Of a stretch of DNA of 64,000 nt, positions 441-19,811 are shown in pieces. Each line of letters opens with the position of its first letter. The first letter of the stretch is position 1. Location: contig PMXR01000109.1 of NCBI GenBank assembly GCA_003171035.1, forward strand, positions 29,019 to 93,018, written 5' to 3'. The DNA comes from Chloroflexota bacterium. Its GTDB lineage: Bacteria > Chloroflexota > Limnocylindria > Limnocylindrales > CSP1-4. Under the pieces are notes generated by a model that was given only the letters and a program-made list of their open reading frames with translations, was not told the DNA's origin and searched no databases. A program made the translations under genes and the position numbers.

Positions 441-519
441 TTTGGTCATTTTCTGCGCCCCTCCGATATGCGGCTTGCCGGCACGAGCTTGCGTGCCGGG
501 TCGATGGTACCTTCCGGCT

Positions 520-2586: not shown

Positions 2587-3878
2587 ATCTGATCCGCCGG
2601 GGGCGCCGTCGGGCTCTGCCATGACGGGGACACGTCGGTTCGCAGACCCCCGATTGCCCGGCTGACCCCCGAGCCGACGAAGAGGGCCGTGTAGACGGGC
2701 CAGCCGACGACTGCCGACACGGCCAGGGCGGCGCCGCACGCCAAGGCCCCGACCGCAAACGCGGCAGAAGTTGCACCGACGTAGTAGCTCTGGCACCGCA
2801 CTCGGAGGTCCGGCGGCGCCAGTCGGTACAGCCGCTCGTTCGCCGCCAGCGCGCCGGCGTTGCCGGCTCCGTTGAAGAGCGCCGAGCCCAGGACCAGCAT
2901 CGGCAGAGCGGCAGGATTGCCGGGGATCGCAAGCGCACATATGACGGCCGCGACCGAACGCGCGAGGAACGAGAGCCGCAGCACACGGCTCGAGGAGCCT
3001 CGCAGCAGGAAGGCGCCGGTCGTCAGCGAGCCGGCAAGGGCCCCGGCCGACGCCGAACCCGAAAGGATCACCGCGAAGCCCGCCGACGCGCCCAGAACCT
3101 GCATCGCGTACAGGGACAGATAAGGAATCAGGCCCTGGCCCAGCGAGGCGACGGCGGTCGCGGTCGTGAACCGCCTGAACTCCTCGGGCAGCGGCTCGGC
3201 CGGCTCTTCACCAGTCTTGACCAGGACGCGGCCTGGATAAGGAAGCCGGGCGACCGCCAGCGGCGTCAGGATCGAGACCAACCCGCCGACCGCGAAGAAG
3301 CCGGCGTATGTCCACAGGCCGATCGATCGCAGTCCGGCGTCCAGAACCGCGCCGGCCGGCAGAAGCAGCAGGGTCGAGAGCGCCATGTTCATGGCGCCCA
3401 TTCGCGGACCAACCAGTCGGCGCTCCTGGTCCGGCAAGACCACGGCCGCCCACAGATTGATGTTCGAGGCCGAGAGCACGCCCGCCGTCTGGCCGATCGC
3501 GACCGTCGCCGAGACAAGGACTATCCCCACTGGAGCGCTGATCAGGCCGGAGGCGATGGCGGCGACCACGGCCGCGTGTGCGAAGCCGCGCAACTCGGCC
3601 AGTGTCAGGAGCAGCGTGAGTCGGCGCAGATTGCCGCCCATGCGCCTCAGGATCTGCGGCGCCAGGGCCTGGACCACCGACGCTGCCACGGGAAAGGACC
3701 CGACCAGGATCACGAGCTCCGGCGGGGCCCCGAGTCGAAGCAGCAGAGGCACGAAGAGCGCGTCGGAGGCGTAGGAACCGGTGAACGCCTGACCTGTCGC
3801 GATGGCCTGGAAGGGACGGTAGCGCGGGGAGGCGAACGCGCGCCAGCGGCTCAGGTTTGGTAGGTGCATTGGGCACAT
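2583..3878 (-). CDS. MFS transporter
   Basis: 431-aa polytopic membrane protein with MFS-like helix spacing. Convergent with the previous MFS gene, overlapping it by 4 nt. The start is uncertain. Confidence 0.55.
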   Translation of the reverse strand: MCPMHLPNLSRWRAFASPRYRPFQAIATGQAFTGSYASDALFVPLLLRLGAPPELVILVGSFPVAASVVQALAPQILRRMGGNLRRLTLLLTLAELRGFAHAAVVAAIASGLISAPVGIVLVSATVAIGQTAGVLSASNINLWAAVVLPDQERRLVGPRMGAMNMALSTLLLLPAGAVLDAGLRSIGLWTYAGFFAVGGLVSILTPLAVARLPYPGRVLVKTGEEPAEPLPEEFRRFTTATAVASLGQGLIPYLSLYAMQVLGASAGFAVILSGSASAGALAGSLTTGAFLLRGSSSRVLRLSFLARSVAAVICALAIPGNPAALPMLVLGSALFNGAGNAGALAANERLYRLAPPDLRVRCQSYYVGATSAAFAVGALACGAALAVSAVVGWPVYTALFVGSGVSRAIGGLRTDVSPSWQSPTAPPADQI

Positions 3879-3946
3879 GATGCGCTACAGCGGGTCGCAG
3901 CGGGTTGCGGCCTCAGTCGGGCAGCCGGATAACCGGTGGCGAGATC

Positions 3947-3999
3947 CGGGGGAGTGGAGCCGACACTCGGATTTGAACCGAGGACCTGCTGTTTACGAA
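3947..3999. repeat. 53-bp direct repeat copying the 3' half of tRNA-Thr, from the anticodon loop to 8 nt past the CCA. This is the distal att site of the island.
   Basis: It is identical to 17322..17374 on the same strand: cgggggagtggagccgacactcggatttgaaccgaggacctgctgtttacgaa. The match diverges exactly inside the anticodon loop. Confidence 0.8.
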
Positions 4000-4431
4000 C
4001 TGGAGCGGCCCTTACGCAGTGGCGCAAGCGTGGAAATTCGTGCGTAAGTCGCTCAGTTAGCAGGCCCTCGCGGTGTCGTCGTAGCCCTGCTGTCTGTTGC
4101 CTCCGAGGACGCAGTTGACGAGGCCATGGTACGCCTTCTTGGGCCGGACGAGGCCATGTCCGGCCGCACCGCGTGATCGGCCACGCCGCCCTAGCTCGAA
4201 CCCGCGACATTCTGCTTGGGAAATATCTGCGTGGGAACGGTATGTCTTCACGCGTGGAATCGAGTCCGAAAAGTGTCCATCTAGAGTGTCGGAACAAGCG
4301 CGGCTCGCGAGGTTCGCTCCGCGACCGGTTCGACGGTGCTCCTAGCCTGACGCAAGAGCGTTGCGCCCCTAATTCTGTACGTCCGAGTATTTGCGTCCGT
4401 CTATCATCGGCCGAGTGAAGCACCCACGCAG

Positions 4432-5511
4432 GTGGAGATGCGGCGAGGCGAGCGCATGTTGCAGATAGGCCGGCAGGATTCCTTCGAACGCGAGTACGTG
4501 GGGAAGTTCCGTTCGCTTGTCGCCAAATTCGGCGAGGTGGTCACCTACGAGAGGGACCGAGGGGCGCGGGACATCGGCGTGCACTTCACGCGAAGGCTTC
4601 CGTCTGACAATGAGGTCGTGTCGGCGGCTCTTTGCTGGTTCCAGCTGAAGGGCTTCATGGAAACCACGTTGTCGACAGAGGACTTCGAAAGCCAGGACGA
4701 GATAAGAATCTCGTTGGAAGTCCGTCACCTTCGCTACTGGTATCTGCAGCCCGTCCCTACGTACCTGGCCCTCTACGTGGCTAGCGTGGACGCTTTCCTG
4801 GTGCTCAACCTTAGCGACTACATAGCCACGACCTGGGGACCGGGCATTCTTGGTCTAGAACAGGAGTCGGCCACAGTCCGCATCCCCCGACGAAGCAGGT
4901 TGGATGAGCAGGCATTTGGGCTGATCATGGCCAAGTCCGATGGGGACGCTTGGGCCAGAGCCCTGGGAAAGGACGAGCTCATCGGCGACTCGTGCTATCG
5001 GGACTATCAGCTCATCTGGCACCTGGGCTCGGCACCGGACCGCGGAGTCCGACATCGAGTCGTGTTCTGGGATTGGCAGAGCAAGACGCGCAGCCAGTTC
5101 TGGTTCCAGGAGAAGCCCCCGGCAGGTGGCTCCTGGATCGACCTTCGCGAGCACTGGCAGTACATGATGGACGTGGCAGAACTCGAAGAAGCCTACCCGT
5201 ATGTTGAATTCTTTGATCCGCCATCGGAGGACATCGAAGGATACCCGGATTGGCTCGTCAAGACCAATTGGAACGAGGATGAGGCCATTCTCGGAGAGCC
5301 ACCCACGGTTGAACTACGGAACGGCGATGCAGTTCCCGGCCTGAATTGCATGGATGAGTACTTCAAGTACATCTTCGGTGCGAGGTTGAATGATCTGGGC
5401 TGGGATCTCTACGAATCAGTCGGGATCTTGCAGAAAGCCGGGTTGGTCGAGGTGGCTCCTGGCCAGAAGGAGAATGTCAGCGTCGCCCCCTGGCACTACC
5501 GAGCCGTGTGA
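4432..5511 (+). CDS. hypothetical protein with a restriction-endonuclease-like (PD-(D/E)xK-like, DUF4365-like) N-terminal domain and an uncharacterised C-terminal domain
   Basis: 359 aa. The N-terminal 160 aa carries D...(E/Q)xK-like elements (ERDRGARDIGVHF ... CWFQLKGF) that I recall from DUF4365-type nuclease domains. Codon usage is lower-GC than the flanking chromosome. It is the first gene inside the island. Confidence 0.45.
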   Translation: MEMRRGERMLQIGRQDSFEREYVGKFRSLVAKFGEVVTYERDRGARDIGVHFTRRLPSDNEVVSAALCWFQLKGFMETTLSTEDFESQDEIRISLEVRHLRYWYLQPVPTYLALYVASVDAFLVLNLSDYIATTWGPGILGLEQESATVRIPRRSRLDEQAFGLIMAKSDGDAWARALGKDELIGDSCYRDYQLIWHLGSAPDRGVRHRVVFWDWQSKTRSQFWFQEKPPAGGSWIDLREHWQYMMDVAELEEAYPYVEFFDPPSEDIEGYPDWLVKTNWNEDEAILGEPPTVELRNGDAVPGLNCMDEYFKYIFGARLNDLGWDLYESVGILQKAGLVEVAPGQKENVSVAPWHYRAV

Positions 5512-5575
5512 CGTTTGGTCCCGCCGGCCAGATCCGTCGCAGAAGTCCCTCAGTGTCGGATGGAGCTGCGACTCC

Positions 5576-5854
5576 CTACGGTCGGCCGGCCTCGAGAGTT
5601 TCTTGGATCTCTTCGGTCAAGGCCTGGACGTCGTGCGAAACACGACGATAGTCTTCCGACACCTGCATCTGGCTCCTGTTTGCCAGAAAGCTCAAGCGCT
5701 CAGACGCCGACCGAAGCAGCGTCACGACCTCCGAGTCCGGGCTCATGCGATTGCTGTCGGTCCAGCGATTGATGGCTTGGCTCGAGAGACCGAACAGCTC
5801 CTCATGCCACTCTCTTGAGTTCACCACCTGCAAGAGGGCCCGTTGGGCGCCCAT
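5576..5854 (-). CDS. small hypothetical helical protein downstream of the nucleotidyltransferase (possible third gene of the operon)
   Basis: Its ORF overlaps the NTase 3' end. An internal Met start (MGAQRALL...) at 5854 leaves a 17-nt spacer after the NTase stop. Composition is non-Arg-rich and coding-like. Confidence 0.3.
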   Translation of the reverse strand: MGAQRALLQVVNSREWHEELFGLSSQAINRWTDSNRMSPDSEVVTLLRSASERLSFLANRSQMQVSEDYRRVSHDVQALTEEIQETLEAGRP

Positions 5855-5871
5855 TCGATCGACAAACTCGC

Positions 5872-6498
5872 TCACTGCACGCTCACTTTCGCCATCAAGG
5901 CGCCCATCCATCGGTTGATCTCTGGCAGGTTCGACAGAACATGCGCAACGTCGTCTTCCGAGGGTCTAGCGCCGAATCCACGCGTAGACAGGATCCGGGC
6001 GTCGTCAAGGATCTTGCGCGACCTAGCGTCCAGAGCGATGCTGTCTGGGCCGATCCTGTCGCAGGCGCGTCGCGAGAAGACAGGCGAGGCACGGTTCATC
6101 AGCGAATAGCAGATTGCCATGTTCCTTATGGCCAGGAACATGGTGGCGAGTTCAAAGACGGCGGTGTCGCGGCGAGCAGCGAGCACGCCGGACGCCGCAA
6201 CGTATAGCTGGTTGAACTTTTCGCTATCTGCCCGCCAACTCATGTATGGCCCTGGCTCGCCCAACTCGCGTACGAAGTCGACGCCGTCCTCTGCAAAGAT
6301 CAAACGAGACTCTATGAACAGGTGCCAGGCGAAGGGATTGCCCTCCGTCCAGAGTTCCCTGAGTCGGGCATATGGATAGACGGAGTAGACGACAGGATCG
6401 AACCTCGAGTCGGGACCATCGACCGCCGCCAGAAGGTCAATGTCTGAGCCAGGCTCGACCTCGCCGCGACAGACTGATCCGTAAACGTAAATGTGCAT
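5872..6498 (-). CDS. minimal nucleotidyltransferase (Pol-beta superfamily) with a C-terminal helical domain
   Basis: The N-terminus reads MHIYVYGSVCRGEVEPGSDIDLLAAVDG, which is the canonical hG[GS]-x(9-13)-DhD nucleotidyltransferase motif. 208 aa. Its start is 4 nt after the stop of the upstream pentapeptide-repeat gene. Confidence 0.7.
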   Translation of the reverse strand: MHIYVYGSVCRGEVEPGSDIDLLAAVDGPDSRFDPVVYSVYPYARLRELWTEGNPFAWHLFIESRLIFAEDGVDFVRELGEPGPYMSWRADSEKFNQLYVAASGVLAARRDTAVFELATMFLAIRNMAICYSLMNRASPVFSRRACDRIGPDSIALDARSRKILDDARILSTRGFGARPSEDDVAHVLSNLPEINRWMGALMAKVSVQ

Positions 6499-6501
6499 CG
6501 T

Positions 6502-7386
6502 TCACCGCCGCGCGAACCGACGGACAAGGATGGATACGAACAGGCCAAGGATGACATACCGGGTCAGAGCGATCGCCGCGACGATCAGCCCCGGATAGCT
6601 GGGCGCTGTCGTGCCAAGGAACACCTGTGGAGCATCTGCCAGGGCGGAAATCCAGTCCTTGACTAGCACTGGATTCCTGGTAAGGAGCGTGTCAAGACTG
6701 GCAAGCAGGACCACGAGCGCGAGGGCGGTCCGGATGAGGTGGGAGGCGCTCTCGCCGTTCCCCCAAATGACGTCGCTAACCACGAACCTCAACCACGTGA
6801 AGAAGGCCTTGAGCCTGGCGGTGCCCGCGTACTTTTGCCGGTAGTAGGACTCGTTGCTCCGCCATGCCTTGCTCAGATGAACTCTCGTCGCGTGGAGCTC
6901 GACAAGTATCGCTTTGTTGACCGCATCGCGGTCACCGAGAGCTTCGTAGTTCGTGCGAAGTGTTCTGGCAAACCAGAGCTTTAGGTTCTCGAATGGCGGG
7001 CAACAGTTGTCCAGGATATCGCTATCGATGAGTGTTCTCTCGAACAGTGCATAGTCGAACTTGCAGCCCGAGAACGTGGAGCCATGGAAGCTGCTTCCGA
7101 CGAACCTGCACCCGGTGAAGTCGCACGAATCGAACGCGCACAGGCGTAGGTAGCAGCCATCGAATACGCAATACCTGAAGTCCACGTTTTCGAAGCGGAC
7201 CTTCTTGGCGCTGACTCGCTCGAAGATTCGGTTCGAGAGGACGACATCGGATACGTCGTCGACCCATTCCTTGTCGGTCTCGACGGTCCGCTTTAGAGGC
7301 TTCAGGGCGGATGCTGGCGCTTGCCCTGATCCATGATGATCGCGTCGCGGAAGTCGAACGGTGCCCAACGCGCTCCTCAAAGACAC
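6502..7386 (-). CDS. pentapeptide-repeat protein with a C-terminal transmembrane region
   Basis: Consecutive A(D/N)LxF-type pentads (FENVDFRYCVFDGCYLRLCAFDSCDFTGCRFVGSSFHGSTFSGCKF). The last 80 aa contain two hydrophobic helices (LALVVLLASL..., GLIVAAIALTRYVILGLFVSILV). Confidence 0.65.
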   Translation of the reverse strand: MSLRSALGTVRLPRRDHHGSGQAPASALKPLKRTVETDKEWVDDVSDVVLSNRIFERVSAKKVRFENVDFRYCVFDGCYLRLCAFDSCDFTGCRFVGSSFHGSTFSGCKFDYALFERTLIDSDILDNCCPPFENLKLWFARTLRTNYEALGDRDAVNKAILVELHATRVHLSKAWRSNESYYRQKYAGTARLKAFFTWLRFVVSDVIWGNGESASHLIRTALALVVLLASLDTLLTRNPVLVKDWISALADAPQVFLGTTAPSYPGLIVAAIALTRYVILGLFVSILVRRFARR

Positions 7387-7475
7387 CGGTCCTCCTCACC
7401 TAGGCTGTACAGCGATCATATGCCAGTCTCGCGGTATTTGCGGGCACAAGAATCGAATCTGTCGGATCTGGGACC

Positions 7476-8825
7476 TCAGATGGGCTTGTTCACTTGGAGG
7501 CCAACCCGGTAGTACCCCCTAGCTACCGCCCGATGCATCGTCGGATCGGCCGCCTGGTAGCGGCGGATAAGGTGCAAGCCCAGGCGCTGCTCGGCAGGCT
7601 CGTAGCTGCGGCACAGCATGTCGGTCGCGCGTTCCAGGTCGGGCCATTCACGCCGGTCGGCGAGGAGCGATGCTGCCTTCAGGGCCTGTCGGACCGTGCG
7701 ATGTCGCGCGGTGATAAGCACGGCAAGCTCGAGGCTGGTCATGTCCTCAAGGTCGAACGCCGGCGCGGTCTCGGGGGGCGACATGGAAGTGGCCCGCGTT
7801 TCGATGGCCGCAGGCTGAGCTGGCTCCTCGACGACCGAATCGATGACGGCGGCTAAGGGAACCGGCTCGGTGGGCTGGCGCTCGACGCCGTGCCAGAGCG
7901 GGCCGATGTCCTCGCGGCCGCCATTCGCGAGGAGTCTGATCCAGGCGGCCGAGCCAACCTCATAGTCGCTCCGCCGTGCCTTCGGATCCGTCGCGATCCC
8001 GCGAAGCGGACGAGGCTCGAGGCCCGCACCGATGGCCAGGACCTCGGCGTCCGCGCCTCGATCGGAGACGTCGCCGATCGCCACGCCCCAGCAACGGCCC
8101 GAGAGCATCGCGTCCTTCGTCGGGCCGGCGATCTGGCGTAGGCGTGCCAGGCGCTCGCGGCTGTTGGCAACCCAGAGCAGATGCCAGCCAACCTGGTGGT
8201 TCTCGAAGAGCTTGGCGTAGGAGCGAAGCCGGTCGCGGATCACCGGCGGCCGTTCGGTCGACTCGTCGACTTCGACGAGGATCACCGCCGATGCCTCGCC
8301 GGTGTCGATGACGACGAGGTGGTCGGGCTTGACGCCCCAGTCGTAGCCGAGGATAAGCCACTCGGGCCACCAGAGCTGCACGAGCCCCGGATCGTGGCGG
8401 ACGAGGGATGCCACGAACTCGACGCCATCGAGCGAGTGACGGGTCGTGATGAGACCTGGCGATCGATAGGCGTTGAGGTGGATGCGGCGTCGTCCGGATG
8501 AACTGAGTCGATAGGCGAGTGGGATTCCACCGCGTTCAGCGGGAAGGGATTCTCTGGTGACTAGATTCTGGAGTGCGAGCTTGCGTGTTCGTCGGAGAGC
8601 CGTGCGAAGGGATGGATACACAAGGGTGGCGAGCTGGCTAGCGGTGCAGACGCGGGCGTATTCGAGAAGGCGAAGGCAAGCACGGTCGGAGAGCGAGAGC
8701 AGGCTGACGTCTACTGGTGTATGGACATGAGCGGCAGGAGAAGGACGGTAGCTCATGTAAGTTGCATCCAATCCGCCGACCGATTGAGCGTGAAATCGCG
8801 ACATTGGGTTGTCGTGGGTCGACAC
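7476..8825 (-). CDS. replication-relaxation family protein (plasmid/AICE-type), putative
   Basis: 449 aa. The N-terminal winged-helix-like segment (LSLSDRACLRLLEYARVCTASQLATLV) resembles the replication-relaxation family found on actinobacterial plasmids and integrative elements. The assignment is from memory of that family, not from a search. Confidence 0.4.
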   Translation of the reverse strand: MSTHDNPMSRFHAQSVGGLDATYMSYRPSPAAHVHTPVDVSLLSLSDRACLRLLEYARVCTASQLATLVYPSLRTALRRTRKLALQNLVTRESLPAERGGIPLAYRLSSSGRRRIHLNAYRSPGLITTRHSLDGVEFVASLVRHDPGLVQLWWPEWLILGYDWGVKPDHLVVIDTGEASAVILVEVDESTERPPVIRDRLRSYAKLFENHQVGWHLLWVANSRERLARLRQIAGPTKDAMLSGRCWGVAIGDVSDRGADAEVLAIGAGLEPRPLRGIATDPKARRSDYEVGSAAWIRLLANGGREDIGPLWHGVERQPTEPVPLAAVIDSVVEEPAQPAAIETRATSMSPPETAPAFDLEDMTSLELAVLITARHRTVRQALKAASLLADRREWPDLERATDMLCRSYEPAEQRLGLHLIRRYQAADPTMHRAVARGYYRVGLQVNKPI

Positions 8826-9625
8826 CGTCCAACGTCAGTCCGATGCACCGCCCCGCGCCAGGTTTCGACGCCGCCGGCGGCCGGGCGGCGACAGGCACTC
8901 TGAAGTCCGCTCGGCTTCTGGGTGGCTGAGCGGCAGGTCGGGGTTCTTCGGTTGGGATCGGGACGCATCCTCGGGATCGAGCTACTAGTCGTCCAGGTAT
9001 AGGGTGCGAGGTCGTCGCGCGCGTTCTGCTCGCGCCCGGGCGGACAGATAGGCGAGGCGGGCGAAGTGGGCTGCTCGGGCATGCGCCGCACGCCGAGCGC
9101 GCTCTTCGGGTTCGAGCAGACCGTCGGGATCGACCTCTCGCTCGAACGACGACATAAAGGCGAGCCTCGCCGCCTTGGTCGTCTCGCGAGGGTCGTGGGT
9201 CGCGTGGAGTCGGTGCGCACCGATCCGCCCGCGAAGGGCCTGACTGGCCCGTTCTGTTTCATCCATCTCCAGATGCGTCCTCGTCCTTCGGTGGTGTTGC
9301 CCGGCGCTTCGACTGAAAGCTCCTGCCCTGCTGGGAGGCGAGCCGTCACTCGATCGCCGGGATGTTGCTCGTCTCGCTCTGGCCTCCTGCTTGACCGCGC
9401 CTGGGGCCGAGATCAGGAGGCGGAGCGAGAACCAGCCGACCCTAAGCCTTCATCGGCTGGTCCGCAAGACATTGTGTACAATACCAGGTACGTGTCTCAC
9501 TGTACGGGTTGTCGCTTCAATCTCGTCCACATAATGCCTTGTCCGGAGAGCCCAGCCGGAGTACGGTGACGCCGAAGACCACATCGAAAGGACACGTCGT
9601 GACCATTGGTGGCGTTCTCGAAGCC

Positions 9626-10195
9626 ATGGGAATGCGGGAGTTGCGCGCCAACCTTCGGGCAGTCGTCGAGAAGGTGGAAGCGGGCAACCCGGTCGTGTGC
9701 CTCAAGGACGGGCAGCCCCTCGCGGTCATGATCAGCCACGAAGAAGCCGAGCACTGGCGCAAGATCGAAGATGCGCTCGCGGTCCTCCATGCGCTTCGCG
9801 TGTATCCGGAAGCGTTGGCTGACCCCTCGGAGCTTGCCGATCTCGCCTCGCTCCAGCGGCCCGACCTCGCCACAATCCGAAGGCTCACGTCGGAGCCTCG
9901 GGCGATCCTCTCGCCGCTACGGACGATCGGCGTCTCCGATGCCCGGGCGGCCTTCGCAACCCTCGTTGGCGAGGTTGCTCAGGGCCGGGTCCGAACGATC
10001 GTCGCGAAAGGTCATCTCGCCGTCGCAGTCATCCCGGCGCCGGAATACGACAGACTCCGCGCCATGAACCGAGTCGTCAGTTGGTTTCGCGGTGCCGGCC
10101 TGGACCTGGCCACCGCGCCGGAACAGCAGGTCATCGACTTTGTCACCAACAACCGCGCCGGGACCGGCGCGGCGCAGCAACAGTCGGCAGGGTAA
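9626..10195 (+). CDS. tandem Phd/YefM-type antitoxin-domain protein
   Basis: Two successive Phd/YefM-like modules: MRELRANLRAVVEKVEAGNPVV...AVMISHEEAEHW and RAAFATLVGEVAQGRVRTIVAKGHLAVAVIPAPEYDRL. The ATG at 9626 was chosen over the longer ORF starting at 9509. Confidence 0.45.
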   Translation: MGMRELRANLRAVVEKVEAGNPVVCLKDGQPLAVMISHEEAEHWRKIEDALAVLHALRVYPEALADPSELADLASLQRPDLATIRRLTSEPRAILSPLRTIGVSDARAAFATLVGEVAQGRVRTIVAKGHLAVAVIPAPEYDRLRAMNRVVSWFRGAGLDLATAPEQQVIDFVTNNRAGTGAAQQQSAG

Positions 10196-10263
10196 GCGAG
10201 ACCGTGGCGGCACGGAACGAGGGGGCGCGTAGAACTTTGACCTTCTAGAAGGTTAGGCTTATA

Positions 10264-10611
10264 GTGTGGGAGATCGAAGGCACGGACCAGTTCGCTGACT
10301 GGTTCGGCCAGCTAACCAGAAGCGACAAAGTAAGAGTCGAAGCCGCGATCGAGCGGCTCGAAGAAGAGGGTCCCGGCCTCGGTCGTCCTTGGGTCGACAG
10401 CCTCGTCGGGACGAAGGTCAAAGAACTCAGACCGCGCGGCGGATATCTCCGGATCTTGTTCCGCTTCGACCCTCGGAAGACGGGAATTCTCCTGACGGCC
10501 GGGAACAAGGAAGGCCTCTGGGATCAGTGGTACAGGACCGCGATCCCGGACGCAGAGAGGTTCTACGAAGCCTACGTCGCCGAGTTGCGGAGAGAAGGAC
10601 TACTGAAATGA
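10264..10611 (+). CDS. type II toxin-antitoxin system RelE/HigB-like toxin (addiction-module killer family)
   Basis: 115 aa. Its stop overlaps the start of a downstream XRE-type HTH gene as ATGA, the arrangement typical of HigB/HigA modules with the toxin first. Confidence 0.55.
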   Translation: MWEIEGTDQFADWFGQLTRSDKVRVEAAIERLEEEGPGLGRPWVDSLVGTKVKELRPRGGYLRILFRFDPRKTGILLTAGNKEGLWDQWYRTAIPDAERFYEAYVAELRREGLLK

Positions 10612-10949
10612 CGACGAGCAAGTTCCGGACGATGCGGCAGGAGATGCTCGACGACCCTGCCTTCCGGGCCGAGGTGGCTCGAGAGAAGGCCATCATGGCC
10701 GAGATCGATCTGGCGGCCGCGCGCCAGACCAGTGGCATGACCCAGGAGGCCGTGGCGGCCGAGATGGGCAAGTCGCAGGAGAACGTCTCCCGGATCGAGC
10801 GCCAGCGCGACGTACGCGTTTCCACCCTGGCGCAGTTCATCCAGGCCCAGGGTGGTGAGCTGGAGATCAACGCCGTCTTCTCTGGCAAGCGCGTCAGCCT
10901 GATGAGGGCCGCAGGGGCGCCAGTCAAGGCAAGCCGCCAGCGCGCCTAA
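10608..10949 (+). CDS. XRE-family HTH antitoxin (HigA-like)
   Basis: 113 aa. The helix-turn-helix reads SGMTQEAVAAEMGKSQENVSRIERQRDVRVSTLAQFIQA. Translationally coupled to the upstream toxin. Confidence 0.55.
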   Translation: MTTSKFRTMRQEMLDDPAFRAEVAREKAIMAEIDLAAARQTSGMTQEAVAAEMGKSQENVSRIERQRDVRVSTLAQFIQAQGGELEINAVFSGKRVSLMRAAGAPVKASRQRA

Positions 10950-11347
10950 TTCGAGTCCGTAGCTCGGCTGAGCGACGTCCCGTGGTCCGTCAGCACCTCG
11001 TCGAGGAGGCGCTGGACGCGACGACCCCGCGTTCGCGCAGCGTCCCGAAGTCGCGAGGATGTCGTCAGGCTTCGATCGAGCGTGCTGCGTACTGCCGCGA
11101 CGACCTGGTCCGGTGCGACCCCGACTATCGGGTGTCGTTCATCTCCTAGATGATGCTTAGGAAGTCAACGACATGGCGGGGCTCCCGGAGGACGGCTGCG
11201 GAGTGGACAGGCGCCAAGGCGCCAAGTCCAAACCAAGCGGCAATCGCGCCTGAGGCGGACTGATAGGCAACCCCGCCAACTCCCGTCCGACCGGACTGGC
11301 TCGGTGCCGCTCGAACACCGACCGCGACGCCGGACGCCGGACGTCGG

Positions 11348-11959
11348 TCAGGTAAACCCGATCCAATAGAGAAAGCCGAAGACGGCGGCGTCGGCCAGCA
11401 CGCATCCAACGATGATCCCAGTCGCTAGGACTCCACGAAGCCGCGGTCTCGAGGCAACTCGGTTCAACAAACGCAGCGAAGCAAAACCGATCACCCAGAT
11501 CGAGACTCCCCAGATGACCAGCATGAACCCCGAGCGCAGCGACTTCTGAGCCGCCCCTATCAGCGCTCGGAGGGCGCCGAGCCCGAAGATCGCGGCCATC
11601 CACCCCTGGATGATTCGCCGAGACATTTGGATTGGATCGAGCGGACTCCGATATAGGGCGCTGGAAAGCCGCGCATCAGTGGTTCGACCGGCTACCGCAG
11701 CAAGCGGGCTGCTGTCCCACAAGGAAGTGCCGTCGACGAAAACGTCGCACCTTACCGAGTCGCCGAAGTCGCGTGACTCGGCGTAGATGACGACCTGTCT
11801 CCCATCGATCGCCATCGGCGCGGTCAGGATCGATGGCTGCTTTCGGCCGGGCTTGGCAAACGTCGCGGCTCGCTTGCCGTCGACGGACAGATGCATGGGT
11901 CCCCGACCAAACCGCCCGCAGTCGAGCTTGAGGATGTGCAGACCCGTGGTGCCCGTCAT
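11348..11959 (-). CDS. hypothetical membrane-anchored protein
   Basis: The C-terminal 90 aa contain two to three hydrophobic helices. The upstream part of the 336-aa ORF is Arg/Pro-rich and probably non-coding, so an internal Met start was chosen. Weak call. Confidence 0.25.
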   Translation of the reverse strand: MTGTTGLHILKLDCGRFGRGPMHLSVDGKRAATFAKPGRKQPSILTAPMAIDGRQVVIYAESRDFGDSVRCDVFVDGTSLWDSSPLAAVAGRTTDARLSSALYRSPLDPIQMSRRIIQGWMAAIFGLGALRALIGAAQKSLRSGFMLVIWGVSIWVIGFASLRLLNRVASRPRLRGVLATGIIVGCVLADAAVFGFLYWIGFT

Positions 11960-12263
11960 GCGCCAGATCTTCGCGGGGGTAATTGCCCCCTTCAGGCCGT
12001 AGCGAACTGGGGCCGCCACGGGCCCTGTCACAGTCTTCGTCGGTTCCACAAAAGGCAACTTGAGCCTCTTCCTGGGAGCAGAGAGTAGGGCTGAGCGTAC
12101 TCGCGGTGACTGCAGTCCGTCTCGACATTTCTCCTCCGGAGCGTGGTCCCGCGAGGCGTGACCGGCACCAATTTCCACGCACGGAAAAGTTGGTCCGCCA
12201 ACGCTCGGGAAAGAGGGATAGCGGCCCGTGCTTCTTGCCGGCGAATCTCGACGTGCCGGAACG

Positions 12264-12983
12264 CTACAGGGCCGCGAGACGGCTGAGCGCGATGATTCCG
12301 TCCGTGGCGCCCGCGATTCCGCGCCACTCCGCGTTCGCCGGATCAAGTAGCTGCTCATGAGCGCGCAGGTAGCCGCGTTCCTTGGCGGTTAACTGGGAGC
12401 GCATCTCCTCGATGTTCGAGACGAGCACCAAGAGTCTGGCGAGATCCCGCAGATGTTTCGCGAGTGAACTGCTGGAAGCGGCCCTGGCCTTGATGACCAA
12501 TGCGCCTGCCAGTGTCGGCACCGGAAGTTTGAACACGTCGCCGAGGACGTCGATCGTCACTTCGCGCCGGCGATGCAGCGCCTGCGTACCTCCGACGGTC
12601 TCGAGGGTCGTGCCTGGCGGCGAAGTGGTCAGGTCTGCCCGAGGCCCGAGGTTCTCTGGCGCGAGCACGTCCACAACGTCGTCGCCTCGGACGAAGCGGT
12701 AGCTGAGACCGTCGTTAGTCAGCTTTGCGGTGAACCCGACCGACTCCAGCCGCCGGGCGGCCTCTTGGGTTGCGCCGGTGAGCGCCCGCACGTCCATCAG
12801 CGCGTCCACGTCCCGAGTCGCGCGCCCCGTCCTGCCGCCATGCTCGCGTTCGAGAAGCGTGACCATTTGGCCGCCGATCAGGACCCACGGCAGCCCGGCG
12901 AGGAGATCGGCGATCTCGTGCGTGACTCGCCAGAGCCGCTCCTCTGCGTCGTCTCTGGGGACTATGACGATTGGGCGCTCCAT
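12264..12983 (-). CDS. nucleotidyltransferase, AbiEii/AbiGii-like toxin family (type IV TA)
   Basis: 239 aa. Contains a GG...DVD nucleotidyltransferase-like segment (LIGGQMVTLLEREHGGRTGRATRDVDAL). The start overlaps the upstream AbiEi-like gene stop as ATGA. Confidence 0.5.
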   Translation of the reverse strand: MERPIVIVPRDDAEERLWRVTHEIADLLAGLPWVLIGGQMVTLLEREHGGRTGRATRDVDALMDVRALTGATQEAARRLESVGFTAKLTNDGLSYRFVRGDDVVDVLAPENLGPRADLTTSPPGTTLETVGGTQALHRRREVTIDVLGDVFKLPVPTLAGALVIKARAASSSSLAKHLRDLARLLVLVSNIEEMRSQLTAKERGYLRAHEQLLDPANAEWRGIAGATDGIIALSRLAAL

Positions 12984-13663
12984 CAGCGCTGATACCGATC
13001 GAACAGCTGGTTCGCAGCTTCCTGTGAACGCGGGTCGGCGTCGTCGGCCAGGTCGATGGCCACGACCGAGCCGGGCGCAAATGGGCGAGCGGGCCAGCCG
13101 GGCGTGAGCGCTGGCGTCGTGCGTAGCATGAGGTTGGGCTGCTGGCCCTCGATCAGCTTGTACTTGTCGACCAGGGTGTCGAGGCGTTCTCTCGTGACGT
13201 ACGCGTCGAACTCGTCGGCCGGCAACAGATCGAGGCCAACGTCGCGCGCGGCTGAAACGCCGGTGCGCATCAAGCCCGACTCGCGCCGGATTGACGCGAG
13301 GTCCGATGGGTGGGCGCGAAACTGGCGGCGTTGGGCGCGCGTCACCAGCCGCGGGCGCAACGAGGCAAGGTCGTGGCGGGTGATGAAATTACGGAGCTTC
13401 GCGCGCGACACCGGGTCGAGCCACGGCGCATCGAGGCCGTCGAGCAGGAACAGCAGACCCCACGCCCGCTGTGGCGAGAAGCGGCGACCATCCAGGGTTC
13501 CTAGCTGTGCTCGGCGATCCACGCTCGCCGCGTCTATCAGCAGGACGCGTCCGAAGTGCCGCGCTACAAGCTCGCCGGATGCGATCAGCGTTCGTACCCG
13601 TCCGGCCGTAACGCCGAGTCGAAAGGCGGCTTCAGGGACTGACAGATCTCTTTCCTCAACCAT
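12983..13663 (-). CDS. AbiEi-like antitoxin / transcriptional regulator (winged HTH, N-terminal)
   Basis: 226 aa. N-terminal HTH-like segment (VPEAAFRLGVTAGRVRTLIASGELVA). Translationally coupled to the downstream NTase-like gene. Confidence 0.45.
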   Translation of the reverse strand: MVEERDLSVPEAAFRLGVTAGRVRTLIASGELVARHFGRVLLIDAASVDRRAQLGTLDGRRFSPQRAWGLLFLLDGLDAPWLDPVSRAKLRNFITRHDLASLRPRLVTRAQRRQFRAHPSDLASIRRESGLMRTGVSAARDVGLDLLPADEFDAYVTRERLDTLVDKYKLIEGQQPNLMLRTTPALTPGWPARPFAPGSVVAIDLADDADPRSQEAANQLFDRYQR

Positions 13664-13763
13664 GGTGATAACAGCATAGTTGAGGAAATCGTCGCGTCAA
13701 GCCGCTAAGTTCGGAGCGTCGAGATGAGCCTCTTGGCCCAAAGCCGATCGCTATCCTGACGAT

Positions 13764-14669
13764 ATGATCGGCTCGCGCGACATCGAGATCAGGCGCGCCG
13801 TGTTCGACTGGCTGACCGAGCAGCGCCAGGAACACGGTGAGGCGCTGTCGCGCGCATCGCTCGAGTCGTTCTCGTTGGGCGGCAAGCGGATCCCGCTGGT
13901 AGGGCCAGCGGGTATCTGGAAGCCCGCGGTCTGCGAGCTGCCGGTTTCGATCACGACGGTCGTGCGCGGACCGTACGACGACGCGTTCGACGAGCGGACC
14001 GGGAGGCTCTCGTACGCCTACCGAGGCACGGACCCAACTCACAAAGACAACGTCGGTCTGCGGACCGCCTGGGCGGAGCGCGTCCCCCTCGTCTATTTCC
14101 ACGCGCTCGAGCCGGGGGCATATGTCGCCTGGTACCCCACGTTCGTTGTCGGCGACGATCCGGTGGCTCTGAGGTTCTCCGTCCAGGTGGACGACATCTC
14201 CGCTGCGTACGCGGTCTCGAGCCGTCAGGTCGCCGACGGCACGGAGGAGGCGCGCCGCGAGTACGTGACTCGGACTGTGCGCCAGCGGCTCCATCAGGAA
14301 CGCTTCCGCGAACGGGTATTGCATGCCTACCAGGACCGATGCGCACTTTGCAGCCTGCGGCACCAGGAGTTGCTCGACGCGGCCCACATCACGCCGGACA
14401 GCCACCCCGAGGGCGAGCCAGTCGTGAGCAATGGCGTCGCGCTCTGCAAACTTCACCATGCCGCGTTCGACCGTCTCTTCTTCGCGGTCCGGCCGGACTA
14501 CGTGATCGAGGTCAAGCCGTCGATCCTGGCCGAGCATGACGGGCCGATGCTCGTCGTCGGCCTGCAGCAGATCCACGGCAAGCTGCTGCTCCTACCGCGG
14601 CGGCCGTCGGATCGCCCAGATCCCACAAGGCTCGAACGGCGTTACGCCGACTTCCTGCGGGCAAGCTGA
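13764..14669 (+). CDS. HNH endonuclease domain protein (restriction-like), with an uncharacterised N-terminal domain
   Basis: C-terminal HNH motif with paired Cys/His ligands: CALCSL...LDAAHI...NGVALCKLHHAAFD. 301 aa. Confidence 0.55.
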   Translation: MIGSRDIEIRRAVFDWLTEQRQEHGEALSRASLESFSLGGKRIPLVGPAGIWKPAVCELPVSITTVVRGPYDDAFDERTGRLSYAYRGTDPTHKDNVGLRTAWAERVPLVYFHALEPGAYVAWYPTFVVGDDPVALRFSVQVDDISAAYAVSSRQVADGTEEARREYVTRTVRQRLHQERFRERVLHAYQDRCALCSLRHQELLDAAHITPDSHPEGEPVVSNGVALCKLHHAAFDRLFFAVRPDYVIEVKPSILAEHDGPMLVVGLQQIHGKLLLLPRRPSDRPDPTRLERRYADFLRAS

Positions 14670-14784
14670 CCGCGCACCGATACTCTGTGCCGGATGCGGC
14701 AGTGCGGCTGGAGAACGCGCTCCGGCGATGCGACAGGTAGAAGGGGCAGTGTTCGGCGGGGTGCTCGGGCATACTTGAACTGTA

Positions 14785-16134
14785 TTGACCGTCGACGAAC
14801 AAGGAGGGCGGGTGTCGGCACCCACGCGCGAAATTGGGTTTCGGACGGGCCGAGTCCGCACCAGCGCCCGGCTTGGCGAATACGTCGAGTTCGGAGAGCC
14901 CTGGCGTCGATCGCTGCTCGTGATCGGCCTTTGGCTGGCTGGTGCGGCGCTATGCGTGGAATGGGCAACAACGACGCAATTCTCGACGGATTGCTATCGC
15001 GGCGTCTGTGGGGCGCAGGCGGCGGAGGCCAACAAGCAAGCAGTTGTTTGGATGGCGGTCGTCTGCTTCGTCGGCTCCGCCCTGTTCATCTGGCGGCGGC
15101 TGCTCCGGCACCCTGGTTTGCGCGTCGGCCAGGGCGGCTTCGAGATAAGGACCCAGGTGCTCGCCCGACACAAGTTCGTGCGATGGCAGGATGTGAGAGT
15201 TCTCTATCCGTCCAGACGTTACATGCGGATCTGGCGCGGGATGAACGTTGGCCTGGTCCACGCCGCCGTTGCCCAAGGTGCGCCGTCGTTCGTGACCGTG
15301 CGACTAAGCGGCCTGTCGGCGCCGCCGTCCGAAATCGAGGCGGAGATGGCAGAGAGGGTTAGGCAGGCGCACCCCAAACGGCCCCACCTCGTGGATAGGC
15401 GAACAGTTTCGAACGGTCAACGGACCCTCCTGGGCATCACGGTTGCCACCGGGGACGACCAGACCTACACAGACATCACATCTGCCAGGTTGATGGATCT
15501 GCTGGAGGGCCTCGGGCCGGATAGCCAATTCCTGATCCTCACCGCTCCCAGCTCCCGAGACGATCAGCATTACATTCAAGTCTGCCAGGCCGGCGCCGGA
15601 GGATGGCACGTCGAGTATCGGGACGGTGGGCCCGATAGCCATTACGGCCTCGAATGCGACGACTTGGAAAAGGTTCATCAAGTCTTGCTTGCTTGGGCCG
15701 ACGACTCGCCCGACTGGCGGACGCGGCTGCCCTGGTATCCGATGGAGATTCACGAGACGGAGGCTCTGGCGCTGCGAGCTTCCGACACGACTCCAGCCCG
15801 GACGCCCGAAGTCGGGCCCATGCCCCCGTTCGCGCCCACGACAGTCATTGCTCACACCGGGGTGGGCAGATTCTTCCCGCGCCTTCGCATTCTGATGAGC
15901 GATTCGGGCATCAAAGCGCCCACCCACCCGTTCTACGCTTGGCGAGAGATCGCCTCGATCGAAGTCGATCCGGAGCGAGGCCATTTGCTGCGACTCTGGA
16001 CGTACGTCGGAGGCAACCCTCGCGATGGGGTGAACGGGATCCCGATTTTGGTGAACCTCAACGGGTATCGAATGCGACCGCGGGATCTGGCCGCAGCCAT
16101 CAAGCGCGAGTTCGATCTCTACAGCGCCCGGTGA
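14785..16134 (+). CDS. hypothetical membrane protein (two N-terminal transmembrane helices plus a large soluble domain)
   Basis: 449 aa. Hydrophobic helices at LLVIGLWLAGAALCVEW and VVWMAVVCFVGSALFIW. Same strand as the HNH gene, 116 bp downstream. Confidence 0.4.
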   Translation: MTVDEQGGRVSAPTREIGFRTGRVRTSARLGEYVEFGEPWRRSLLVIGLWLAGAALCVEWATTTQFSTDCYRGVCGAQAAEANKQAVVWMAVVCFVGSALFIWRRLLRHPGLRVGQGGFEIRTQVLARHKFVRWQDVRVLYPSRRYMRIWRGMNVGLVHAAVAQGAPSFVTVRLSGLSAPPSEIEAEMAERVRQAHPKRPHLVDRRTVSNGQRTLLGITVATGDDQTYTDITSARLMDLLEGLGPDSQFLILTAPSSRDDQHYIQVCQAGAGGWHVEYRDGGPDSHYGLECDDLEKVHQVLLAWADDSPDWRTRLPWYPMEIHETEALALRASDTTPARTPEVGPMPPFAPTTVIAHTGVGRFFPRLRILMSDSGIKAPTHPFYAWREIASIEVDPERGHLLRLWTYVGGNPRDGVNGIPILVNLNGYRMRPRDLAAAIKREFDLYSAR

Positions 16135-16253
16135 CTCACCCTCCGGCCCTGAAGTAGCCTCGCGGCGAGTCGCTCTCTGACGAGCGTGGGTTCCGCGAAT
16201 ACGCGTCGCCGAGATGACGTGAACCCCGGATGGCGTGCCCGGTCGCAGCCGCG

Positions 16254-17189
16254 TCAATACTTGTCGCTCGGCGCGATCCTCCGATAGGCGGCGATCGCGC
16301 GGTCGGTGCCGGCGGAGGCCGCATAGCGCGCCACCATCTGGCGGCTTCGCCAGCCTGCCAGACGCAGGAGGTCGGTTTCCTGCATTCCGGCGGACAGCAG
16401 CGTGTGGGCGAACAAATGCCGGAACGCGTGGGCGCCGATACGCGGCAAGCCTGCCGCTTCGGATCGTCGTTCGAGGATGTCGCCGATGCCGTCACTACGG
16501 ACAGGACCATTGTGGCCGAGCCAGAGTTCCGGCCGAGCGGCGTCGCGGTGGGTTCGGCGTTCCCGCAAGTAGCGATCAAGCGCCTGGGCGGTTCGCGGTC
16601 CAAAGGTGATGATCCGAGGGCGGCGACCCTTACCCAACACCGTCGCCGTCTTCTCGCGCAGATCGATCGAGTCGACCGTGAGCCCCGCGATCTCACTCCG
16701 GCGGGCGCCCGAATCGAGGAGCAGACGGATGAGCGCGACATCGCGACGGTCGTTGAATAGACGGCCCTCGCAGGCGCGCAAGAGGGCGCGGACGGCGTCC
16801 TCGCCAAGCAACGGGACCGGCTCCTCCGGCACCCGGGGCGGGCGCATCCGCAGCATCGGCGACGCCTCGGTCATTTCCTCCTCGGCCAGCCAGTCGAAGA
16901 ATCGCTTGAGTGCGAGGTAGCGATTTCGGGCGGTGTTGGGCCGCCAGCGCGCGATCTGGTCGGCGATGAACGCCTCGACGTGCTCGCGTCGGATGCTCGC
17001 GGGCTCGGTGGGCATGGCCCGTTCGACGAGAAACCGGCCCAAGAGGGCGACCGCTTCCTCGTAGGTTCGAAGTGTCTTTGGGGCCAGATTCTCGGCCTCG
17101 CAGGAGAGCAGGAACGAATCTAGCTCGGCCTGGAAGGAATCGGGCAGGGGGATCGAAGGGGCGGTCGGCAAAGGGCTTTTGGTACGCAT
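16254..17189 (-). CDS. tyrosine-type site-specific recombinase/integrase (XerC/XerD-like)
   Basis: C-terminal catalytic region reads HAFRHLFAHTLLSAGMQETDLLRLAGWRSRQMVARYAASA (the R...HxxR...Y signature). It lies immediately beside the tRNA-Thr att site. Confidence 0.8.
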   Translation of the reverse strand: MRTKSPLPTAPSIPLPDSFQAELDSFLLSCEAENLAPKTLRTYEEAVALLGRFLVERAMPTEPASIRREHVEAFIADQIARWRPNTARNRYLALKRFFDWLAEEEMTEASPMLRMRPPRVPEEPVPLLGEDAVRALLRACEGRLFNDRRDVALIRLLLDSGARRSEIAGLTVDSIDLREKTATVLGKGRRPRIITFGPRTAQALDRYLRERRTHRDAARPELWLGHNGPVRSDGIGDILERRSEAAGLPRIGAHAFRHLFAHTLLSAGMQETDLLRLAGWRSRQMVARYAASAGTDRAIAAYRRIAPSDKY

Positions 17190-17321
17190 ATAGCGCCTCC
17201 ACGGCTGCTCCGGAATGCGTACCCCGAGTGCAAGTTAGCAGGTCTTCGAGCCTTGTGGCGAGCCCCGCGGCCCCGTTGCGCCCCTCGGAAGACGAGATAG
17301 CAGGTCTTCCTGAGCGTGGAT

Positions 17322-17374
17322 CGGGGGAGTGGAGCCGACACTCGGATTTGAACCGAGGACCTGCTGTTTACGAA
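17322..17374. repeat. integrase-proximal att copy; the 3' half of tRNA-Thr, identical to 3947..3999
   Basis: Exact 53-bp match to the distal copy. Confidence 0.8.
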
Positions 17375-17404
17375 ACAGCTGCTCTACCGCTGAGCTATGT
17401 CGGC
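17330..17404 (-). tRNA. tRNA-Thr (anticodon CGU)
   Basis: Manual fold of GCCGACATAGCTCAGCGGTAGAGCAGCTGTTTCGTAAACAGCAGGTCCTCGGTTCAAATCCGAGTGTCGGCTCCA. The acceptor stem has 7 of 7 pairs. D, anticodon and T stems are all paired. The anticodon loop is TTCGTAA and CCA is encoded. Confidence 0.85.
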
Positions 17405-17512
17405 GCGACCGGGATCGTATCACGCCGATCGGTGGGCCACGACCAGAACCGCTCGAAACCCGCGTGCCGCCGGCCGTCGGCGCGAAAGAATGTCAGGTCA
17501 GACGCGCTCCGC

Positions 17513-19720: not shown

Positions 19721-19811
19721 CCCAGTCGCGACGGCGCCCCGATTGGGCGAACTTTCAGTCACGAAATGCAGTCAACCAGGCAGTACGTAGACAGATAGGG
19801 AGAAGACATCC

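Follow-up and report, generated by a model that had tools for sequence, protein, structure and literature searches.

A probable integrative element in the tRNA-Thr(CGU) gene of a Candidatus Limnocylindrales bacterium, with an arm-less Xer-like integrase and a multi-site attachment region

The tRNA-Thr locus and its genes

The window described here is the whole 64,000-nucleotide stretch of contig PMXR01000109.1 (assembly GCA_003171035.1, Chloroflexota bacterium) that was analysed, and our subject is a 13.4-kb island within it that ends at a threonine tRNA gene. The only tRNA that ARAGORN predicts in the window is tRNA-Thr(cgt), at 17330-17404 (minus strand); with the Rfam tRNA model it scores 72.6 bits. 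A repeat search recovered a 53-nt direct repeat (3947-3999 and 17322-17374), whose copies are 100% identical, have the same orientation and are offset by 13,375 bp. On the tRNA strand the repeat reads TTCGTAA ACAGC AGGTC CTCGG TTCAAAT CCGAG TGTCGGC T CCA CTCCCCCG, so it starts at base 1 of the anticodon loop and ends 8 nt past the encoded CCA. A 32-nt portion of it has 2 matches in the window at ≤3 mismatches, against 0.00 expected from 100 shuffles. An initial annotation of the window, made from its letters, had described an intact tRNA-Thr, an exact duplication of its 3' half from the anticodon loop to 8 nt past the CCA, and a tyrosine integrase gene adjoining the tRNA. All of these hold: ARAGORN and Rfam agree on the tRNA, prediction at both loci gives one intact tRNA and one 3' fragment, the repeat copies are identical at 53/53 nt when re-checked, and the integrase gene is a real open reading frame (ORF) with the expected domains (Table 1). 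The second repeat copy also exists as described; only the tRNA coordinates had been given for it, and its true span is that stated above.

Genes were called by third-position GC content (GC3), the genome being GC-rich, and were then checked with Pfam, NCBIfam, PHROGs and PADLOC. Inward from the tRNA lie a 132-nt non-coding P arm, the integrase gene int, a gene for a 449-aa protein, HNH_2, an overlapping HTH_17/AbiEii-like pair, a 223-aa gene, a Gp49 (HigB-like)/HTH_3 pair, Phd/YefM, Replic_Relax, a pentapeptide-repeat gene, a nucleotidyltransferase gene, a 111-aa ORF, DUF4365 and a P' arm of about 100 nt. The addiction-module, nuclease and replication-relaxation cargo that had been read from the letters is borne out by Pfam matches to Phd/YefM, Gp49 and HTH_3, HNH_2, DUF4365 and Replic_Relax; the AbiEii match is only weak. 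No virion, type IV secretion, FtsK-like or second recombinase gene was found among the island ORFs with Pfam and PHROGs. Positions 4000-17321 have a GC content of 0.638 versus 0.681 on each flank, and GC3 is 0.71-0.88 in island genes versus 0.83-0.91 in flank genes, so the composition profile places the element below its flanks on both measures; the initial annotation had noted the lower GC.

Empty site and probable spread of the island

Relatives of the flanking TPM-domain protein come from Chloroflexota and Candidatus Limnocylindrales metagenome-assembled genomes (MAGs) of fens, peat and soil. Many Limnocylindrales MAGs keep the order MFS ... tRNA-Thr(CGU)-TPM-PspA-AIM24-YceI-MarR, in whole or in part. 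Distant members (L010-L019) have none of the queried island genes, though the MFS ... tRNA-Thr-TPM-PspA synteny is kept; in one of them (L017) the MFS gene ends 169 nt from the tRNA. Closer contigs with an empty site were recovered by exact-protein look-up with PspA; the same look-up with the 431-aa protein of the left flank returned no record. Three such contigs (L089, L091 and L093), from a sister population at 91.6-92.7% nucleotide identity, carry MFS, a 428-aa gene, tRNA-Thr, TPM and PspA without the island. Positions 1562-5561 of L089 align to window 1-3999 at 92.7% and positions 5512-13346 to window 17325-25216 at 91.6%. The two alignments overlap in one 50-nt stretch, a single core, and 13,375 bp are therefore absent to the base. 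The trailer left of the distal core and that of the L089 empty site are homologous, and the P arm is absent downstream of the tRNA in the empty-site genomes.

A further contig, L090, is an island carrier (int, 449-aa gene, HNH_2). It is 98.98% identical to the empty-site contig L089 over 10,265 nt of flank from the tRNA on, so the site is polymorphic, occupied or empty, within a single species-level population. When the window is compared with L090, identity is 95.4% in the island and 91.6% in the flank. As the island is more similar than the flanks, the comparison suggests that it has spread horizontally between the lineages after their divergence. The reading of a tRNA-Thr integrative island, which the initial annotation had proposed, is thus strengthened by a precise empty site in related genomes and by presence/absence polymorphism at this tRNA. 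Anatomy, an intact integrase, the empty site in close relatives, and an island more similar than its hosts make it highly probable that this Candidatus Limnocylindrales bacterium carries, at window 4000-17374 (13,375 bp, one repeat copy included), a site-specific integrative element lodged in its tRNA-Thr(CGU) gene.

Repeats can cause mis-joins in metagenome assemblies, and the 53-nt repeat might instead have arisen from an error of assembly, or by a chance or segmental duplication that has no link to recombination. The same structure was assembled independently in JGI, ENA and Logan data from several samples, a single copy stands at the empty site between collinear flanks, and zero chance matches are expected, which leaves this explanation a negligible probability.

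The left-flank gene for the 431-aa protein (2583-3878, minus strand) has no Pfam or NCBIfam match, and the more distant Limnocylindrales MAGs lack a homologue. The empty-site sister strain has it, at 428 aa, and it is therefore chromosomal and outside the island.

The integrase

The integrase (Int) is a simple Xer-like enzyme. Of its 311 residues, 23-107 form a SAM-like core-binding domain and 128-293 the catalytic domain, and the alignment to XerD begins at residue 24, which leaves no room for an arm-binding domain. The catalytic set is complete, with R163, K187, H254, R257, W280 and Y289 corresponding to R148, K172, H244, R247, H270 and Y279 of XerD. The best curated matches in NCBIfam are XerC, XerA and XerD, at about one third of their cutoffs (XerC 131.6 bits, cutoff 335; XerD 121.3 bits, cutoff 329.6). 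In the Protein Data Bank (PDB) the best matches by pairwise score are XerD (1a0p, 4e-18) and gp33 of the phage Brujita, an arm-less enzyme (5vfz, 2e-12). A chromosomal XerC/XerD dimer-resolution recombinase was considered and rejected, since the scores lie below the equivalog cutoffs and the gene is missing from the sister strain together with the island. In the survey of Smyshlyaev et al. (PMC8138268), simple recombinases were counted in 27 phages versus 410 with arm-binding enzymes, and in 12 integrative and conjugative elements (ICEs) versus 211, so an arm-less Int belongs to a minority type.

Homologues were compared among the best 120 of 2,337 matches at E ≤ 1e-20. About 38 clusters lie at 74-95% identity, followed by many at 51-58%; among the matches listed, nearly all are 300-315 aa long and annotated 'XerD', and 311 aa is the commonest length. 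The same Int clade (77-95% identity) adjoins tRNA-Thr(CGU) in unrelated chromosomal contexts with other cargo (L082, L084 and L021), and the L084 element carries an MmeI-like restriction-modification gene. In L082 (9787-20936, Int 79% identical) Replic_Relax of the element at tRNA-Thr is followed by HMA, by a MerA-like (pyridine-nucleotide-disulphide) reductase and by ArsR/MerR regulators, a gene set suggestive of a metal-resistance (mercury/metal) island. A more distant relative, 56% identical and from a 305-312-aa family, ends a Chloroflexota prophage with terminase and tape-measure protein (L086/L087, 10001-20918), and no tRNA was detected beside it.

Attachment sites and a model for recombination

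A scan of metagenome contigs for the 53-mer core returned 59 contigs, whose flanks were then sorted. Both arms are conserved between elements with other cargo, and the P' arm alignment comprises 14 elements, the window included. The arms carry a 12-mer, GACCTGCT(A/G)(A/T)CT, at fixed offsets from core base 1 and in constant orientation in dozens of contigs: at -67 in P', at +68 and at +130 or +139 in P, and one subgroup has an additional copy near +227. The window contains 8 occurrences where 0.94 would be expected, six of them within attachment (att) regions. The core itself holds an inverted copy, GACCTGCTGTTT, at +5, made up of the 3' strand of the anticodon stem and the variable region. 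The 5' partner of the motif in the tRNA is GAGCAGCTGTTT (10/12 match), and attB therefore reads GAGCAGCTGT TTCGTAA ACAGCAGGTC. This is the usual arrangement, a pair of recombinase half-sites in inverted orientation with a 7-nt overlap between them. Identity between attP and attB begins exactly at the TTCGTAA heptamer, and the crossover region is predicted to be this anticodon-loop heptamer, at 3993-3999 in attL and 17368-17374 in attR.

In L021 (3632-3706) a 95%-identical Int adjoins a tRNA-Thr(CGU) that departs from the tRNA of the window in its acceptor stem and T arm and is identical to it only in the anticodon arm and variable region. This case fits recognition of half-sites in the anticodon arm. 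Outside the recombinase sites, the element core appears to track the host tRNA (L021 vs window 17330-17404).

In the mechanism that we propose, Int would recombine the circular attP with the tRNA gene. It would bind the core half-sites, an imperfect inverted repeat made of the anticodon stem and its neighbours to either side of TTCGTAA, and strand exchange would take place in the 7-nt anticodon loop. The element would supply its own copy of the tRNA from the loop to the CCA, so that the gene stays intact, and the displaced 3' part of the host gene would become the distal repeat. The extra copies of the GACCTGCT half-site (-67, +68 and +130) may build the attP complex as accessory sites and so replace the arm-binding domain; we infer that Int binds them.

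The arm motifs could also be operators of another element or host protein, or part of a promoter or RNA structure serving int and the tRNA trailer. Such a role would suit the first P-arm site, which lies inside a 7-bp hairpin directly after the tRNA (GGAAGAC...GTCTTCC), and the second, which lies just 5' of the int leader, and consensus scans found no sigma-70 promoter near the att sites. However, the octamer GACCTGCT is common to the core half-site in the tRNA, and the calculated chance of an 8-mer matching the 53-nt core is about 1 in 700. Offset and orientation are kept on both arms, including the P' arm far from int, and the motifs are also kept in integrase-less mini-elements that have no int to regulate. 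A role apart from Int is a real possibility that we nevertheless consider doubtful, and we favour the motifs as accessory Int sites. On the side of a role apart from Int stands also the Brujita integrase, which Lunt and Hatfull described in 2016, to go by their title, as a simple, arm-less system and which reportedly needs no accessory sites.

Expression of int

The distance from the end of the tRNA to the int ATG is 139-141 nt in 11 of 11 distinct members of the family (including L028, L034, L050, L064, L072, L076, L080, L082, L084 and L020). In all six members folded as single sequences, GGUACGCR forms a stem with UGCGUACC, where the AUG lies, and the GGAGG is paired in an inner stem. The z-scores of this hairpin are -0.9 to -3.1 across the six, and L080 has a compensatory A-U to G-C change. 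An RNAalifold consensus of the whole P arm (-8.7 kcal/mol) gave no convincing structure, and the MAFFT alignment behind it misplaced the GGTACGC block. Consensus scans found no sigma-70 promoter or intrinsic terminator around either att site, including the interval between the tRNA and int, and read-through from the tRNA is therefore possible. By covering the ribosome-binding site and the start codon, the leader hairpin would keep int output low. For arm-less integrases that catalyse both directions, the level of Int sets stability (PMC3694055), and the predicted hairpin fits control of stability by this route.

Transfer genes and class of element

The Replic_Relax protein is a candidate PD-(D/E)XK-type nicking enzyme of the MOBC class, either a relaxase or a replication initiator. 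Its family, PF13814, corresponds to the MOBC relaxase class in CONJscan (PMC5357655) and has the PD-(D/E)XK fold (PMC3424549). A PD...ExD..TER block is common to the window protein and its homologue in L082, the PHROG match to 'replication initiation by nicking' is weak, and a PDB sequence search with the protein gave no match. Such an enzyme may let the excised circle be mobilised or replicate. An integrase and a candidate relaxase without mating-pore genes are the sequence definition of an integrative and mobilizable element (IME; PMC5704250); the island may belong to this class, though we hold that to be less likely than not. An ICE, or an actinomycete ICE (AICE), was rejected, because no type IV secretion system or FtsK-like Tra translocase was found among the island ORFs with Pfam and NCBIfam. 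A prophage was rejected too, as no virion structural, packaging or lysis gene was found with Pfam and PHROGs and Int has no relative in IMG/VR.

A prophage remnant or phage satellite, rather than a plasmid-like mobilizable island, would be in keeping with the 56%-identical integrase relatives that end a prophage, with Gp49 and HNH as common phage-associated genes, and with a viral contig of IMG/VR that uses the same tRNA-Thr fragment as attP. The integrase of that contig is unrelated, however, and Int is without a viral relative there. No capsid, portal, terminase, tail or lysis gene was found among the island ORFs with Pfam and PHROGs, 13.4 kb is too small for a tailed phage, and Replic_Relax is a gene of replication or transfer type. 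A phage origin is therefore very unlikely, and a possibly mobilizable island is the reading that we retain.

The viral contig (L081, IMGVR_UViG_3300045968_000086) carries the same 45-nt 3' part of tRNA-Thr(CGU) at 6274-6318, with a 395-aa integrase and arms unrelated to those of the island. The tRNA-Thr(CGU) gene is therefore also a phage integration site.

Capacity for excision

We infer that the element may still be excisable. Several results weigh against a mobile element of the kind described so far. No attP/attB junction of this element occurs in the 59 core-bearing metagenome contigs, a weak negative because the collection is without the source contig. No recombination directionality factor was identified among the island genes. 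In JGI, ENA and Logan assemblies, every contig retrieved with an identical integrase matches the window at 99.4-100% identity and has the island; these are 6 of 6 from the 99-100% population, a sample biased by being fetched via the integrase, and none of the six is an empty-site contig of exactly that population. For transfer, no coupling protein or mating-pore gene was found among the island ORFs with Pfam, no oriT was identified, and Replic_Relax is not present in all family members. For control of int, the leader hairpin has modest z-scores, and coding also constrains its 3' arm.

Some of these results could be explained by an island that integrated site-specifically and is now fixed, a domesticated defence and toxin-antitoxin island that no longer excises in this lineage. 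Every retrieved contig of its population carries the island, the collection lacks a junction of the exact element, no excisionase was identified, and a sister lineage (L044, L032) shows decay of this kind. The element of the window, in contrast, has identical repeats, a full-length int (311 aa, the commonest length among the listed homologues) with all catalytic residues, and both arms with all arm sites intact. Presence/absence polymorphism between 99%-identical genomes and an island more similar than the flanks across hosts also speak against fixation, and arm-less integrases of the Brujita type need no directionality factor (PMC3694055). Fixation is thus unlikely, and we keep to an element that may still excise.

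The decayed sister island (L044 7330-9102 and L032 1-973) keeps Gp49, HTH_3 and HNH_2 at 87-92% amino acid identity. It has lost int and the 449-aa gene; 27 nt separate the end of HNH_2 from the core, and of the P arm no more than the first ~17 nt remain.

Two further candidates were examined and rejected. Junctions of P arm, core and P' arm in L041, L056, L057 and L067 were considered as circles; they are tandem junctions or array members, with more cores a few kb away. The HTH_17 protein was considered as a directionality factor; it scores just below the TIGR01764 cutoff, is fused into a larger protein of an AbiE-like pair, and is absent from related elements.

Integrase-less mini-elements in tandem arrays

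In at least 15 contigs the P arm lies beside the tRNA with no integrase within 1.3 kb. Several contigs have a second core 1.2-5 kb away with a P' arm adjoining, and these cores delimit mini-elements of 1-3 genes (Table 1, contig coordinates in window orientation). A further P arm past the distal core in L037, L039, L045, L067 and L074 points to tandem arrays. One type of P arm is tRNA-proximal in L043/L071 and takes the distal place in L039, an order that insertion of newcomers into the intact tRNA would produce. The window itself was considered as a tandem array or cis-mobilizable element (CIME) and rejected, since it has two core copies only, even at ≤3 mismatches.

The island could be the autonomous member of an undescribed system in Chloroflexota of Limnocylindria type, in which one arm-less Int services integrase-less cassettes stacked in tandem at tRNA-Thr(CGU). 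The cassettes would measure 1.2-5 kb, hold 1-3 genes, and have a P' arm of ~100 nt and a P arm of 140-250 nt with fixed core-like sites. This joint reading is speculative, and we hold it to be rather improbable as it stands. If true, it would describe an integron-like platform for gene capture, built on a tRNA gene and double-stranded att sites.

Cargo genes and neighbouring features

Table 1. Coordinates of the att sites, genes and other features of the island in the window, and of integrase-less mini-elements in related contigs.
Feature	Position	Strand	Evidence and remarks
attL core	3947..3999	-	tRNA-Thr 3' part (anticodon loop to CCA, 45 nt) plus 8 nt of trailer; exact 53-nt repeat
P' arm (left end)	4000..4100	-	core-like sites GGCCTGCTAACT 4055-4066 (-) and GCCCTGCTGTCT 4084-4095 (+)
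DUF4365 protein, 359 aa, nuclease-like cargo	4432..5511	+	PF14280 34 bits (cutoff 24.3); weak PADLOC PDC-M02A match
111-aa ORF 3' of nucleotidyltransferase gene	5576..5911	-	GC3 0.71; no family match above cutoff
Nucleotidyltransferase-domain protein, 208 aa	5872..6498	-	PF01909 26.8 bits (cutoff 21); PADLOC PDC-S09 28 bits
Pentapeptide-repeat protein, 294 aa	6502..7386	-	PF00805 46.9 bits
Replic_Relax protein, 449 aa as longest ORF	7476..8825	-	PF13814 53.9 bits (cutoff 25.3)
Uncertain ORF, 198 aa	8753..9349	-	no family match; source gene caller has 8985-9266 (93 aa) instead (L001)
Phd/YefM-domain antitoxin-like protein	9509..10195	+	PF02604 52.5 bits, two stretches
Gp49/HigB-like toxin, 115 aa	10264..10611	+	PF05973 57.2 bits
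HTH_3 (HigA-like) antitoxin, 113 aa	10608..10949	+	PF01381 30.1 bits; 4-nt overlap with toxin stop; 113-aa gene call in L001
223-aa protein	11348..12019	-	gene call in L001; no Pfam match
AbiEii-like nucleotidyltransferase toxin (weak)	12264..12983	-	PF08843 21.1 bits, below cutoff 22.5
HTH_17/excisionase-type DNA-binding-domain protein, 226 aa	12983..13663	-	PF12728 29.7 bits; TIGR01764 27.6 (cutoff 28.8)
HNH_2 endonuclease, 301 aa, defence-type	13764..14669	+	PF13391 37.6 bits; PADLOC HNH 70.6 bits
449-aa protein convergent with int	14785..16134	+	sub-threshold matches only; adjoins int in L090 too
int, 311-aa simple Xer-like tyrosine recombinase	16254..17189	-	Phage_integrase (PF00589) 81.9 bits; SAM-like N domains
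int leader hairpin	17181..17223	-	GGUACGCAU pairs with AUGCGUACC; start codon 17189-17187; inner stem over GGAGG ribosome-binding site 17196-17200
P arm (right end)	17190..17321	-	core-like sites GACCTGCTATCT 17295-17306 (-) and GACCTGCTAACT 17233-17244 (-)
attR core	17322..17374	-	element-derived 3' part of the now-functional tRNA plus 8 nt
Intact tRNA-Thr(CGU)	17330..17404	-	host 5' part (17375-17404) plus element 3' part; ARAGORN, Rfam
Mini-element, L074	405-1683		1.2 kb; RibD_C gene
Mini-element, L045	887-2511		1.57 kb; SnoaL
Mini-element, L067	235-2300		2.0 kb; GMC oxidoreductase
Mini-element, L037	4398-6485		2.0 kb; DUF2652-SRPBCC
Mini-element, L043 and L071	2120-6019 (L043)		3.8 kb; HipBA and Schlafen/AlbA_2 protein
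Mini-element, L049	6112-10507		4.3 kb
Mini-element, L039	1025-6178		5.1 kb; TOTE primase-helicase, AlbA_2, toxin-antitoxin pair

The HTH_17 gene and the AbiEii-like gene share one base, and the HTH_17 protein is more likely an AbiEi-like antitoxin than an excisionase. The 111-aa ORF is a possible toxin-antitoxin partner of the nucleotidyltransferase. The HNH_2 protein also matches the NCBIfam model for a PT-DNA restriction endonuclease, at 60.6 bits and below the cutoff of that model. The 449-aa protein convergent with int and the 223-aa protein obtained no family assignment with Pfam, NCBIfam or PHROGs. Two or three toxin-antitoxin pairs together with the nuclease and defence genes would stabilise the island and protect the host.

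The composition of the island changes in a step at ~7450, with a GC content of 0.595 at 4000-7450 versus 0.653 at 7451-17321. The step suggests a mosaic origin, and the DUF4365/nucleotidyltransferase/pentapeptide block looks like a separately acquired module. To the right of the island, positions 19426-19692 hold degenerate Gly-rich repeats (GGYGGG/GGFGGG) that form the C-terminal tail of the TPM-domain protein. Positions 24798-24919 hold tandem 36-nt and 15-nt repeats (GGGGCTGCCGGCGTCGGCGAC...) within the ORF at 23809-25233, which is LigD Prim-Pol in the source gene calls and lies beside an ATP-dependent DNA ligase gene.

Significance and comparison with known systems

The window offers a cleanly bounded element from a poorly studied phylum of soil and peat, with the occupied and the empty site both in hand, so that excision and integration are directly testable. 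How simple tyrosine recombinases choose their sites and the direction of the reaction can be conveniently studied in this natural example. With a compact int-attP module directed at a conserved tRNA, Chloroflexota could also gain a tool for integration. In its cargo, the element is a further example of small integrative islands as carriers of toxin-antitoxin and defence genes.

Williams is said to have distinguished, in 2002, sublocation classes of integration in tRNA genes, among them a type with crossover in the anticodon loop. The island resembles tRNA-gene islands of this type in several respects: the integrase lies directly 3' of the intact tRNA in the same orientation, the repeat is the 3' part of the tRNA from the anticodon loop, the cargo is accessory, the GC content is below that of the flanks, and relatives have an empty site. 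Unlike the usual tRNA-gene islands, it has a short 311-aa Xer-like integrase without an arm-binding domain, and its host belongs to an uncultured Chloroflexota lineage. A literature search found no such elements described in this lineage, as far as the search went. Targeting of tRNA genes by clusters of integrases has been described (PMC8138268).

The streptococcal IMEs with Rel_PF13814/MobC relaxases (PMC5357655, PMC5704250) offer another parallel: the island likewise encodes an integrase of its own and a PF13814 protein, lacks type IV secretion genes, and brings along toxin-antitoxin and adaptive cargo. It differs in that those elements have a coupling protein of VirD4 type, of which the island has none, and in that no oriT was identified in it. 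The related contigs, with integrase-less, att-bounded units in tandem at the same tRNA, recall the accretion of CIMEs of the ICESt1/ICESt3 type (PMC5704250), whereas the window holds a single autonomous element and no tandem. Compared with CIMEs, the mini-elements are very small, with conserved arms of ~100-250 bp, and look more like cassettes than decayed ICEs.

The simple arm-less integrases of the phages Brujita and BPs (PMC8138268, PMC3694055; 5vfz) likewise consist of core-binding and catalytic domains only and act on a mobile element. Int matched Brujita gp33 at E = 2e-12, no directionality factor is evident, and control is probably exerted via the Int level, here by the leader hairpin. 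In contrast to these enzymes, Int is closer in sequence to XerD than to gp33 and has no obvious C-terminal degradation tag; its attP has conserved accessory core-like sites, and the carrier is an island rather than a phage. The layout of integration-dependent immunity, in which BPs and Brujita have attP within the repressor gene, was considered for the window and rejected. The sole ORF across attL (3851-4423, minus strand) is non-coding, with GC1 0.65, GC2 0.64 and GC3 0.55 and an Arg-rich nonsense translation, and the indels in the P' arm alignments are not multiples of three.

The attI sites of integrons carry accessory direct repeats that bind IntI. The island shares with them a recombinase without an arm-binding domain and an attachment site with extra copies of core type. 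Unlike integrons, it has no folded single-strand sites of attC type, its target is a tRNA gene, and Int scores 43 bits with the IntI model TIGR02249, whose cutoff is 265. Set against these systems, the island is a fairly ordinary, well-known kind of element that has been mobile recently. Less routine are the combination of an arm-less Xer-like Int with a rigid attP of several sites, the population data that speak for recent mobility in an uncultured phylum, and membership of a family in which cassette-like, integrase-less units also occur.

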